A DNA stretch of 64,000 nucleotides from Escherichia coli. Its GTDB lineage: Bacteria; Pseudomonadota; Gammaproteobacteria; Enterobacterales; Enterobacteriaceae. The stretch's first letter is position 1; each line of letters opens with the position of its first letter. The notes below the pieces were generated by a model. It was not told the origin of the DNA and made no database searches. It saw nothing but the letters and a program-made list of their open reading frames with translations. Below, piece by piece: positions 58,760 to 62,042 of the stretch. Where the stretch lies: the NCBI RefSeq assembly GCF_050920415.1, contig NZ_CP169309.1; one strand, 5' to 3'. Made by a program: the position numbers and the translations under genes.

Positions 58760-60729
58760 CACAACTCGCCATTGGCAAACCCGCACCCCTCGGCGCGCAT
58801 TACGACGGTCAGGGCGTCAACTTCACACTTTTCTCCGCTCATGCCGAGCGGGTAGAACTGTGTATCTTTGACGCCAATGGCCAGGAACATCGCTATGACT
58901 TGCCAGGGCACAGTGGCGACATTTGGCACGGTTATCTGCCGGATGCGCGTCCGGGTTTGCGTTATGGTTATCGCGTTCATGGCCCCTGGCGACCCGCCGA
59001 GGGACATCGCTTTAACCCGGCGAAGTTGTTGATTGATCCTTGCGCGCGGCAAATTGACGGGGAGTTTAAAGATAACCCGCTGCTGCACGCAGGTCATAAT
59101 GAACCTGACTATCGCGACAACGCCGCCATTGCGCCGAAATGTGTAGTGGTGGTTGATCACTATGACTGGGAGGATGATGCCCCGCCGCGCACGCCGTGGG
59201 GCAGCACTATCATTTATGAAGCCCATGTCAAAGGATTAACGTATCTGCACCCGGAGATCCCCGTCGATATCCGCGGCACTTATAAAGCCCTGGGGCATCC
59301 GGTGATGATCAACTATTTGAAACAGTTGGGCATTACTGCGCTGGAGTTGCTGCCGGTGGCACAATTTGCCAGCGAACCACGCCTGCAACGTATGGGGTTA
59401 AGTAACTACTGGGGCTATAACCCGGTAGCGATGTTTGCGCTGCATCCGGCGTATGCCTGCTCGCCAGAAACGGCGCTGAATGAGTTTCGCGATGCAATCA
59501 AAGCACTGCATAAAGCGGGTATCGAAGTCATTCTTGATATCGTGCTTAACCATAGTGCGGAACTGGACCTCGACGGTCCGTTATTCTCTCTGCGTGGGAT
59601 CGACAACCGTAGCTATTATTGGATAAGAGAAGACGGTGATTATCACAATTGGACAGGCTGTGGCAACACGCTCAATTTGAGTCATCCGGCGGTGGTGGAT
59701 TATGCCAGCGCCTGCCTGCGTTATTGGGTAGAAACCTGCCACGTCGATGGTTTCCGTTTTGATCTGGCAGCAGTCATGGGCCGTACGCCTGAGTTTCGTC
59801 AGGATGCGCCGTTGTTTACCGCAATTCAGAACTGCCCGGTGCTCTCGCAGGTGAAGTTAATTGCCGAACCGTGGGATATTGCGCCTGGTGGTTATCAGGT
59901 GGGAAATTTCCCGCCATTGTTTGCTGAGTGGAACGATCATTTCCGTGATGCTGCCCGTCGTTTCTGGCTGCATTATGATTTGCCTCTGGGGGCGTTTGCC
60001 GGGCGTTTTGCTGCCTCCAGCGATGTTTTTAAACGTAATGGTCGTCTGCCGAGTGCCGCGATTAATCTCGTCACCGCGCATGACGGTTTTACGCTTCGCG
60101 ACTGCGTTTGCTTCAACCATAAACACAATGAAGCAAACGGAGAAGAAAATCGCGACGGGACCAACAACAATTACAGTAACAATCATGGTAAAGAAGGATT
60201 AGGCGGTACTCTTGACCTGGTTGAACGGCGGCGCGACAGCATTCACGCCCTGTTAACAACGTTGTTGCTCTCCCAGGGTACGCCGATGTTACTGGCCGGT
60301 GACGAACATGGTCATAGCCAGCATGGCAATAACAATGCCTACTGTCAGGATAATCAATTAACCTGGTTGGACTGGTCGCAGGCAAGCAGTGGTTTAACCG
60401 CATTTACCGCCGCGTTAATCCATCTGCGCAAGCGCATTCCCGCTTTGGTGGAGAATCGCTGGTGGGAAGAAGGCGACGGCAATGTCCGTTGGCTAAATCG
60501 ATATGCTCAACCTTTAAGCACGGATGAGTGGCAAAACGGGCCGAAACAGCTGCAAATTCTGCTCTCGGATCGCTTTTTGATCGCAATTAACGCCACGCTT
60601 GAGGTAACAGAGATTGTTTTACCTGCTGGGGAGTGGCACGCCATTCCCCCATTCGCTGGAGAGGATAACCCAGTGATTACGGCTGTCTGGCAGGGACCTG
60701 CACACGGATTGTGTGTGTTCCAGAGATGA
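58756..60729 (+). CDS. glgX: Glycogen debranching enzyme GlgX
   Basis: 657-aa ORF, ATGA overlap with glgB. Confidence 0.95.
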
Positions 60730-60740
60730 TAAAAAAGGAG
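60701..60740 (+). promoter_or_regulatory. glgC leader CsrA binding sites: GGA-loop hairpin plus GGA within the Shine-Dalgarno sequence
   Basis: CACAC-GGATT-GTGTG hairpin with GGA in the loop (60701-60715) and AAGGAG SD (60735-60740) 7 nt before the glgC ATG. Confidence 0.7.
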
Positions 60741-60746
60741 TTAGTC

Positions 60747-62042
60747 ATGGTTAGTTTAGAGAAGAACGATCACTTAATGTTGGCGCGCCAGCTGCCATTG
60801 AAATCTGTTGCCCTGATACTGGCGGGAGGACGTGGTACCCGCCTGAAGGATTTAACCAATAAGCGAGCAAAACCGGCCGTACACTTCGGCGGTAAGTTCC
60901 GCATTATCGACTTTGCACTGTCTAACTGCATCAACTCCGGGATCCGTCGTATGGGCGTGATCACCCAGTACCAGTCCCATACTCTGGTGCAGCACATTCA
61001 GCGCGGCTGGTCATTCTTCAATGAAGAAATGAACGAGTTTGTCGATCTGTTGCCAGCGCAGCAGAGAATGAAAGGGGAAAACTGGTATCGCGGCACCGCA
61101 GATGCGGTCACGCAAAACCTCGACATTATTCGCCGTTACAAAGCGGAATATGTGGTGATCCTGGCGGGCGACCATATCTACAAGCAAGACTACTCGCGTA
61201 TGCTTATCGACCACGTCGAAAAAGGCGCACGTTGCACCGTCGCTTGTATGCCTGTACCGATTGAAGAAGCCTCCGCATTTGGCGTTATGGCGGTTGATGA
61301 GAACGATAAAATTATCGAATTCGTTGAAAAACCCGCTAACCCGCCGTCAATGCCGAACGATCCGAGCAAATCTCTGGCGAGCATGGGTATCTACGTCTTT
61401 GACGCCGACTATCTGTATGAACTGCTGGAAGAAGACGATCGCGATGAGAACTCCAGCCACGACTTTGGTAAAGATTTGATTCCCAAAATCACCGAAGCCG
61501 GTCTGGCCTATGCGCACCCGTTCCCGCTCTCTTGCGTACAATCCGACCCGGATGCCGAGCCGTACTGGCGCGATGTGGGTACGCTTGAAGCTTACTGGAA
61601 AGCGAACCTCGATCTGGCATCAGTGGTGCCGGAACTGGATATGTACGATCGCAATTGGCCAATTCGCACCTACAATGAATCATTACCGCCAGCGAAATTC
61701 GTGCAAGATCGCTCCGGTAGCCACGGGATGACCCTTAACTCACTGGTTTCCGGCGGTTGTGTGATCTCCGGTTCGGTGGTGGTGCAGTCCGTTCTGTTCT
61801 CGCGCGTTCGCGTGAATTCATTCTGCAACATTGATTCCGCCGTATTGTTACCGGAAGTATGGGTAGGTCGCTCGTGCCGTCTGCGCCGCTGCGTCATTGA
61901 TCGTGCTTGTGTTATTCCGGAAGGCATGGTGATTGGTGAAAACGCAGAGGAAGATGCACGTCGTTTCTATCGTTCAGAAGAAGGCATCGTGCTGGTAACG
62001 CGCGAAATGCTACGGAAGTTAGGGCATAAACAGGAGCGATAA
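60747..62042 (+). CDS. glgC: Glucose-1-phosphate adenylyltransferase GlgC (431 aa)
   Basis: [49 protein letters not shown]... Confidence 0.95.

Follow-up and report, generated by a model that had tools for sequence, protein, structure and literature searches.

For translational repression by CsrA, and likewise for the bridging of two sites by a CsrA dimer, the glgC leader is the founding example. Four CsrA sites have been described in this leader, of which one overlaps the SD and one is located in a hairpin loop just upstream; these two are the principal sites (PMC7652899), and CsrA footprints have been reported on both of them (PMC7652899, PMC2896534). The CsrA dimer is tethered through its high-affinity interaction with the hairpin, bridges to the SD and blocks ribosome binding (PMC7652899, PMC2896534). 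Such bridging is effective over 10-63 nt and works best above 18 nt (PMC7652899). In addition, a "weaker, non-consensus site just upstream of the glgC SD" has been described, and repression of glgC is reported to be altered and lost when the footprinted ACGGA is mutated (PMC6028588). The SELEX consensus for CsrA is RUACARGGAUGU, in which ACA and GGA are invariant.

The segment analysed here coincides in locus and sequence with the E. coli glgC leader studied by Baker et al. (2002, Mol Microbiol 44:1599) and Mercante et al. (2009, J Mol Biol 392:511), and, as these two studies are described in papers that cite them, it shares with them ACGGA in or adjacent to the loop, a GGA in the SD, a 134-nt leader and dimer bridging, with no difference. 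The glgC leader of Salmonella (Holmqvist et al. 2016, PMC5207318), which belongs to another species and was compared by its description, contains an orthologous GGA hairpin that is bound in vivo; Salmonella CsrA CLIP-seq reads "almost perfectly overlapped" this hairpin (PMC5207318), and our Enterobacteriaceae alignment (see below) has the same structure. The operators of cstA, pgaA and cel of ColE7 (T1 hairpin plus SD) share with glgC an upstream loop GGA, a GGA in the SD and exclusion of the ribosome (PMC7652899, PMC2896534). However, they are located in non-coding leaders or terminator hairpins, whereas the glgC hairpin lies within the coding sequence of the upstream gene. Similarly, CsrB and CsrC (RsmZ/RsmY) have short, GGA-presenting hairpins that match the SELEX consensus, but these RNAs are decoys that sequester CsrA, whereas the glgC element is a translational operator.

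The CsrA hairpin of glgC is therefore already well described, and no new biology comes from the element itself. For glgC, gel shifts, footprints, toeprints, reporter mutagenesis and CLIP-seq have been published that document direct CsrA binding, bridging, exclusion of the ribosome, csrA-dependent repression and the consequences of mutation (PMC7652899, PMC6028588, PMC2896534, PMC5207318); our analysis established the identity of the leader, its fold, the spacing of its sites and their conservation at synonymous positions within Enterobacteriaceae. Its added value is modest and lies in the comparative picture, that is, a regulatory RNA kept within a coding sequence via codon choice.

Location and identity of the glgC leader

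The window (the whole 64-kb stretch of DNA that was analysed) carries a segment of the E. coli chromosome with the gene order glgB-glgX-glgC-glgA. On the basis of NCBIfam, GlgB was placed at 56573-58759 and GlgA at 62042-63475. Between them, both on the plus strand, are glgX (58756-60729), which codes for a glycogen debranching enzyme of 657 aa (NCBIfam NF002983, 1370.8 bits; RefSeq annotation of the identical locus), and the regulated gene glgC (60747-62042), which codes for a glucose-1-phosphate adenylyltransferase of 431 aa (NCBIfam NF001947, 771 bits; RefSeq annotation). We found many complete E. coli chromosomes with 100% identity to positions 60300-61100; this part is annotated in them as the glgX-glgC junction, and the segment was present in 5425 of 5426 complete E. 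coli chromosomes. Strain 2013C-4282 carries a 15.4-kb insertion relative to the window, and window coordinates are not transferable to it.

The TGA stop codon of glgX (60727-60729, plus strand) is located 10 nt past the hairpin, 5 nt ahead of the glgC SD and 17 nt ahead of the glgC ATG. An earlier note on this DNA, made from the sequence alone, had pointed to an AAGGAG SD that itself contains GGA; this SD was found at 60735-60740 (plus strand), with its GGA at 60737-60739, and the ATG (60747) follows after 6 nt. This ATG was conserved in the 80 loci that we compared (see below). GTG at 60711, with which the longest open reading frame starts, was rejected as the start of glgC, and the annotated, conserved ATG was preferred. 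The sequence of 60701-60749 is CACACGGATTGTGTGTGTTCCAGAGATGATAAAAAAGGAGTTAGTCATG.

The native parts of the published gel-shift primers glgCFor and glgCRev (PMC2896534) map exactly to 60658-60670 and 60777-60791, respectively. They span exactly 134 nt, which corresponds to the published "+46 to +179" fragment (PMC2896534), so that the comparison with the published glgCAP leader called for in the earlier note reproduced this fragment. By arithmetic from the primer positions, we infer that +1 of the leader is window position 60613. The untranslated leader of glgC (glgCAP) in literature numbering would then occupy 60613-60746 (134 nt, plus strand), almost wholly within the glgX coding sequence, with the hairpin at +88 to +104, the loop GGA at +94 to +96 and the SD GGA at +125 to +127. 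ACGGA, the footprinted non-SD site, has one occurrence (60704-60708), which is at the hairpin. Judged by sequence, the segment does not differ from the E. coli glgC leader on which the published experiments were made. A full-text search with the exact hairpin sequence CACACGGAUUGUGUG or its DNA form matched no paper. Besides, an Rfam scan of 60000-61200 at E-values up to 10 returned only chance-level, sub-threshold matches to snoRNAs and sRNAs, and no Rfam family appears to describe the glgC element.

Structure of the hairpin and arrangement of CsrA sites

The high-affinity CsrA hairpin was assigned to 60700-60716 (plus strand) using RNAfold, the RNAalifold consensus of 39 Enterobacteriaceae and the literature. 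The hairpin CACAC-GGAUU-GUGUG with GGA in its loop, as proposed in the earlier note, was recovered at 60701-60715, where CACAC (60701-60705) is paired with GUGUG (60711-60715) around the loop GGAUU (60706-60710). RNAfold added the closing pair G60700·U60716, which gives the arms GCACAC (60700-60705) on the 5' side and GUGUGU (60711-60716) on the 3' side. The stem of 6 bp is thus composed of five Watson-Crick pairs and one G·U pair. The 19-nt element had a folding energy of -7.2 kcal/mol (z = -2.8; RNAfold), and shuffled versions were equally stable in 3 of 200 cases. The hairpin was present in both the MFE and the centroid folds of 71-nt and 146-nt contexts; as wholes, these contexts had z-scores of only -0.8 and -0.9, which were not significant. 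A lower stem extension, GGGAC/GUUCC, was predicted in E. coli. In most species its pairs 10-30 and 6-34 cannot form, and because this lower stem is not conserved it was not included in the element.

The location of the hairpin within the glgX coding sequence, also claimed from the sequence at the outset, held: it corresponds to codons 649-654 of 657. The glgX frame through the hairpin reads Ala649 (GCA), His650 (CAC), Gly651 (GGA), Leu652 (TTG), Cys653 (TGT) and Val654 (GTG), followed by Phe-Gln-Arg and the stop codon. The loop GGAUU encodes Gly651 and part of Leu652. Its GGA (60706-60708, plus strand), which is the core of the ACGGA site, is the Gly651 codon itself, an assignment based on sequence, codon bias and published mutagenesis (PMC6028588).

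The distance between hairpin and SD, first given as 20 nt, is 19 nt when counted from the 3' end of the stem to the SD. The distance relevant for bridging, from loop GGA to SD GGA, is 31 nt, and this spacing fits the range of 10-63 nt reported for bridging (PMC7652899). The hairpin site, GCACACGGAUUG, agrees with the SELEX consensus at 8 of 12 positions, with both ACA and GGA there; the SD site also agrees at 8 of 12 positions, but without ACA. Two-site repression of glgC by CsrA, as read from the sequence in the earlier note, is supported by the literature, with the refinement that the leader has four sites of which these two are principal (PMC7652899).

With regard to the other sites, AGAGA is given as a secondary CsrA site type, with reference to the glgC study of Baker 2002, in one paper (PMC4066749). 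The sole AGAGA of the glgC leader is at 60722-60726 (plus strand), between the hairpin and the SD, where it overlaps the last two glgX codons; the last 10 codons of glgX contain both the hairpin and this motif. Because it is the only AGAGA of the leader, we infer that it is probably the weak, non-consensus CsrA site. Further upstream in the leader, GGAGAGGA (60658-60665, plus strand) provides two more GGA motifs, which are candidates for the additional CsrA sites of the literature.

We conclude that the 60700-60740 region is almost certainly the operator through which CsrA controls the glgC mRNA of E. coli and that it acts by two-site bridging. The published mechanism is the best-supported explanation, and experiments on each of its steps are in the literature (PMC7652899, PMC6028588, PMC2896534, PMC5207318). 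One RNA-binding face of the CsrA homodimer occupies the GGA in the pentaloop of the hairpin, and the second face bridges to the GGA of the glgC SD downstream, with the probable weak AGAGA site positioned between them. CsrA bound in this way excludes the 30S subunit from the ribosome-binding site and leaves glgC untranslated. The untranslated glgCAP mRNA decays faster, and glycogen synthesis remains low during growth. The block is relieved when the sRNAs CsrB and CsrC titrate CsrA away.

Codon choice and conservation in Enterobacterales

We examined how often such a motif occurs in the window. Perfect 5-bp hairpins with GGA in a loop of 4-8 nt were found 28 times on both strands, compared with 34.8 +/- 6.4 expected from a Markov-1 simulation; the GGA-loop hairpin motif alone is not above chance in the window. 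For a composite motif, in which the hairpin is followed 10-63 nt downstream by an SD-positioned GGA and next by an ORF start (ORFs of 100 aa or more), the single real gene start in the window was that of glgC, and the other match (30673-30721) was internal and evidently spurious. At the species level, 5380 of 5425 complete E. coli genomes, HB101 among them, matched the 76 nt spanning the element at every position, which is not above the conservation of control 76-mers from glgX (5347 identical) and glgC (5384 identical). Since the bare motif occurs at chance density, the functional case rests on conservation and on published experiments.

The chance frequency of the motif would also fit a different explanation, namely that the hairpin is a by-product of coding for the GlgX peptide Ala-His-Gly-x-Cys-Val (GCN CAY ... 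UGY GUN) and has no role at the RNA level. One GlgC scan of species-representative genomes yielded 80 loci across Enterobacterales, with no Salmonella locus among them. The C-terminus of GlgX was aligned codon by codon, and the Enterobacteriaceae set comprised 39 species including the window, which represent related lineages and not independent events. When applied to this set, RNAalifold returned a consensus with the identical six pairs. As the coding explanation would have it, four of the six follow from the conserved peptide A-H-G-x-C-V, whose codons fix them through their first and second positions, and they are therefore little informative; the informative pairs are the two at synonymous sites. 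One of these, the pair between the third positions of the Ala and Cys codons, was kept in 37 of 39 species (GC in 25, GU in 8 and AU in 4, with an AC mismatch in 2). The other, between the third positions of the His codon and the codon of the variable residue, was kept in 35 of 39 (CG in 32 and UG, UA and GU in one each, with 4 mismatched). Retention of these wobble-facing pairs through AU, GU, GC and UA variants argues against a coding by-product.

Codon usage points in the same direction. The codon at the Ala649 position was GCA or GCG in 39 of 39 Enterobacteriaceae and never GCC or GCT, compared with a background of approximately 48-53% in glgC and glgX. The loop Gly codon was GGA in 34 of 39, against backgrounds of 7.4% in glgC and 12.1% in glgX; GGA is otherwise the rarest Gly codon in these two genes of the same species. 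Adjacent synonymous sites were free in the 39 species. For example, a Pro codon was CCT in 20 and CCC in 18, the upstream Gly codon was GGG in 26 and GGA in 10, and the adjacent Val codon was also variable (GTA in 21, GTG in 10 and GTT in 6).

Covariation was less clear. Changes on both sides were observed at only 2 pairs, and 98 of 500 shuffles reached that count. Moreover, a register slid by -2, which forms a GGA triloop, paired in 92.8% of cells versus 97.2% for the hairpin register. That the slid register is nearly as good, because of the CA/GU repeats, is again a point for a coding by-product. Considering the kinship of the species, the two double-changed pairs and the slid register, we regard the covariation evidence as supportive and not decisive alone, and the bias toward the GGA codon is the stronger signal.

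Other lineages of Enterobacterales provided a further point for the coding explanation: Erwiniaceae, Serratia and Yersinia have no GGA in the loop, yet they retain A-H-x-x-C-V together with most of the stem. All 14 Erwiniaceae species kept the peptide AHGVCVF; their loop codon was GGC, GGT, GCC, GCT or GAC, and GGA in none of the 14. The Ala-Cys wobble pair was mismatched in 5 of these 14 species, and only 1 of 14 had any further GGA in the stretch 10-63 nt ahead of the SD. Against this stand the two codon biases and the published footprints, mutagenesis and CLIP-seq, which all fall on exactly this glgC hairpin. We therefore consider it very improbable that the hairpin reflects coding only.

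For the CsrA operator, the spacing between loop GGA and SD GGA was 31 nt in most Enterobacteriaceae and 26-32 nt in nearly all, and 39 of 40 loci of this family had a GGA-bearing SD. Among the sampled families the SD GGA is nearly universal. Because the loop GGA was found in 0 of 14 Erwiniaceae, the two-site operator looks restricted to Enterobacteriaceae among these families, and the comparative data suggest that it is confined to them.

Operator and ribosomes at the glgX-glgC junction

A full-length glgBXCAP transcript and glgCAP transcripts starting within glgX have been described in the literature. In principle, the hairpin could serve in intrinsic termination, attenuation or transcript processing between the two genes, since it is a stable stem-loop close to the 3' end of glgX, 10 nt ahead of the stop codon, but the probability of this is negligible: the stem has only 3 G-C pairs and is followed by UGUUCCAGAGAUGAUAAAAAAGG with no U-tract, a terminator scan of 60200-60900 gave 0 sites, and both kinds of transcript traverse the hairpin position. 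A simple promoter consensus scan of 60200-60900 detected no sigma-70 consensus match, and therefore the glgC promoter(s) within glgX could not be located by sequence.

The location of the CsrA operator within glgX has a possible consequence for translation. On the long transcript, ribosomes would have to pass the hairpin and cover the SD region, and competition with CsrA is therefore expected: ribosomes that end at 60727-60729 should compete with CsrA and might couple the translation of glgC to that of glgX. In the searchable literature library, we found no paper on the overlap of the operator with glgX coding sequence. These considerations can be joined into a broader reading, which is possible but, taken as a whole, rather unlikely. 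It holds that the region is a dual-coding operator, which in Enterobacteriaceae alone is maintained by selection at synonymous sites of GlgX codons 649-654 and from which CsrA is evicted by ribosomes, and that hairpins have been rebuilt elsewhere. Ribosomes finishing glgX on the glgBXCAP transcript would melt the hairpin and evict CsrA, and those terminating 17 nt before the glgC ATG could re-initiate at glgC. Control by CsrA would then be exerted mainly on the glgCAP transcripts that start inside glgX, or at low glgX translation. Lineages without this arrangement would have rebuilt GGA hairpins, the original having been lost via insertion, as in Pseudocitrobacter, or via loss of the GGA, as in Serratia.

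The distance from the end of glgX to glgC was 11-18 nt in most of the 80 loci. A few individual cases were different. In Pluralibacter, Pseudocitrobacter, Klebsiella oxytoca and Trabulsiella, insertions between glgX and glgC put the hairpin 51-104 nt from the SD. Pseudocitrobacter had a second GGA-loop hairpin, located 28 nt ahead of the SD, and two Serratia species had a different GGA-loop hairpin 49 nt ahead of the SD; these are anecdotal observations.

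Start codon and additional GGA motifs of the E. coli glgC leader

The longest glgC open reading frame of the window (60711-62042, + strand, 443 aa) begins with a GTG located within the 3' arm of the glgX-embedded hairpin. The annotated start, the ATG at 60747 (431 aa), is conserved across 80 species. Additional GGA motifs were found on the same strand of the leader, including GGAGAGGA at 60658-60665 (leader +46 to +53) and the GGA of a GGGAC (60694-60696) immediately 5' of the hairpin. In E. coli, this GGGAC can pair with GUUCC (60717-60721) to form a lower stem, and comparison across species revealed that the lower stem is not kept. 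These motifs are candidates for the other CsrA sites described in publications on this leader.

Hairpin position and content in other Enterobacterales

Several Enterobacteriaceae had additional sequence between glgX and glgC. For example, in Pseudocitrobacter faecalis (L011) a 40-nt insertion leaves 71 nt between the glgX-embedded hairpin and the SD. A second GGA-loop hairpin, uccgCGGAGGGcgga, occurs in the inserted intergenic RNA, approximately 30-45 nt before the glgC ATG (locus position 2501) and 28 nt ahead of the SD GGA, and it may serve as a replacement CsrA site. Structured inserts of 66-73 nt, upstream of position 2501, also split the two genes in Trabulsiella (L018) and Klebsiella oxytoca (L025), where the conserved GGA hairpin sits 97-104 nt from the SD, a distance exceeding the published dimer bridging limit of 63 nt (PMC7652899). 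The Trabulsiella insert has an unusually stable fold (z = -3.2).

In Serratia plymuthica (L054) and S. grimesii (L056), the corresponding peptide is AHSICV and no GGA is present where the E. coli hairpin loop falls. Both loci have a different hairpin, gccuGGAACCaggc, likewise within glgX, approximately 60 nt upstream of the glgC ATG, with its GGA 49 nt ahead of the SD. This hairpin could represent either an independent solution or a chance occurrence. In Erwiniaceae (L040-L051, L053 and L073), GlgX retains the C-terminal peptide AHGVCVF, but the loop Gly codon is GGA in none of the 14 loci, and the stem pair between the third codon positions of Ala and Cys is mismatched in 5 of them. Erwiniaceae appear to be without a hairpin-borne CsrA/RsmA site.

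Other features of the window

When the entire window was searched with Rfam, the RyhB small RNA (RF00057; 49092-49156, + strand) scored 83.1 bits, where the gathering score is 55, and no other gathering-level match was found. Except for glgC, the composite of a GGA-loop hairpin, a GGA and an in-frame start occurred only at 30673-30721 (+ strand; UAAAGCGGACGACUUUA, GGA at 30712, ATG at 30721). Homology with the locus of E. coli 2013C-4282 (L082) places this instance within the ftsX coding region, and it is therefore probably due to chance. The same L082 locus has a cluster of approximately 15.4 kb between acpT and yhhT (L082 3579-18968), which is absent from the window's strain (corresponding point ~20021/20060). 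Its content, including ApeI/ApeP-family dehydratases, ketosynthases, acyl carrier proteins, an MMPL transporter and a LolA-like protein, looks aryl-polyene-like.
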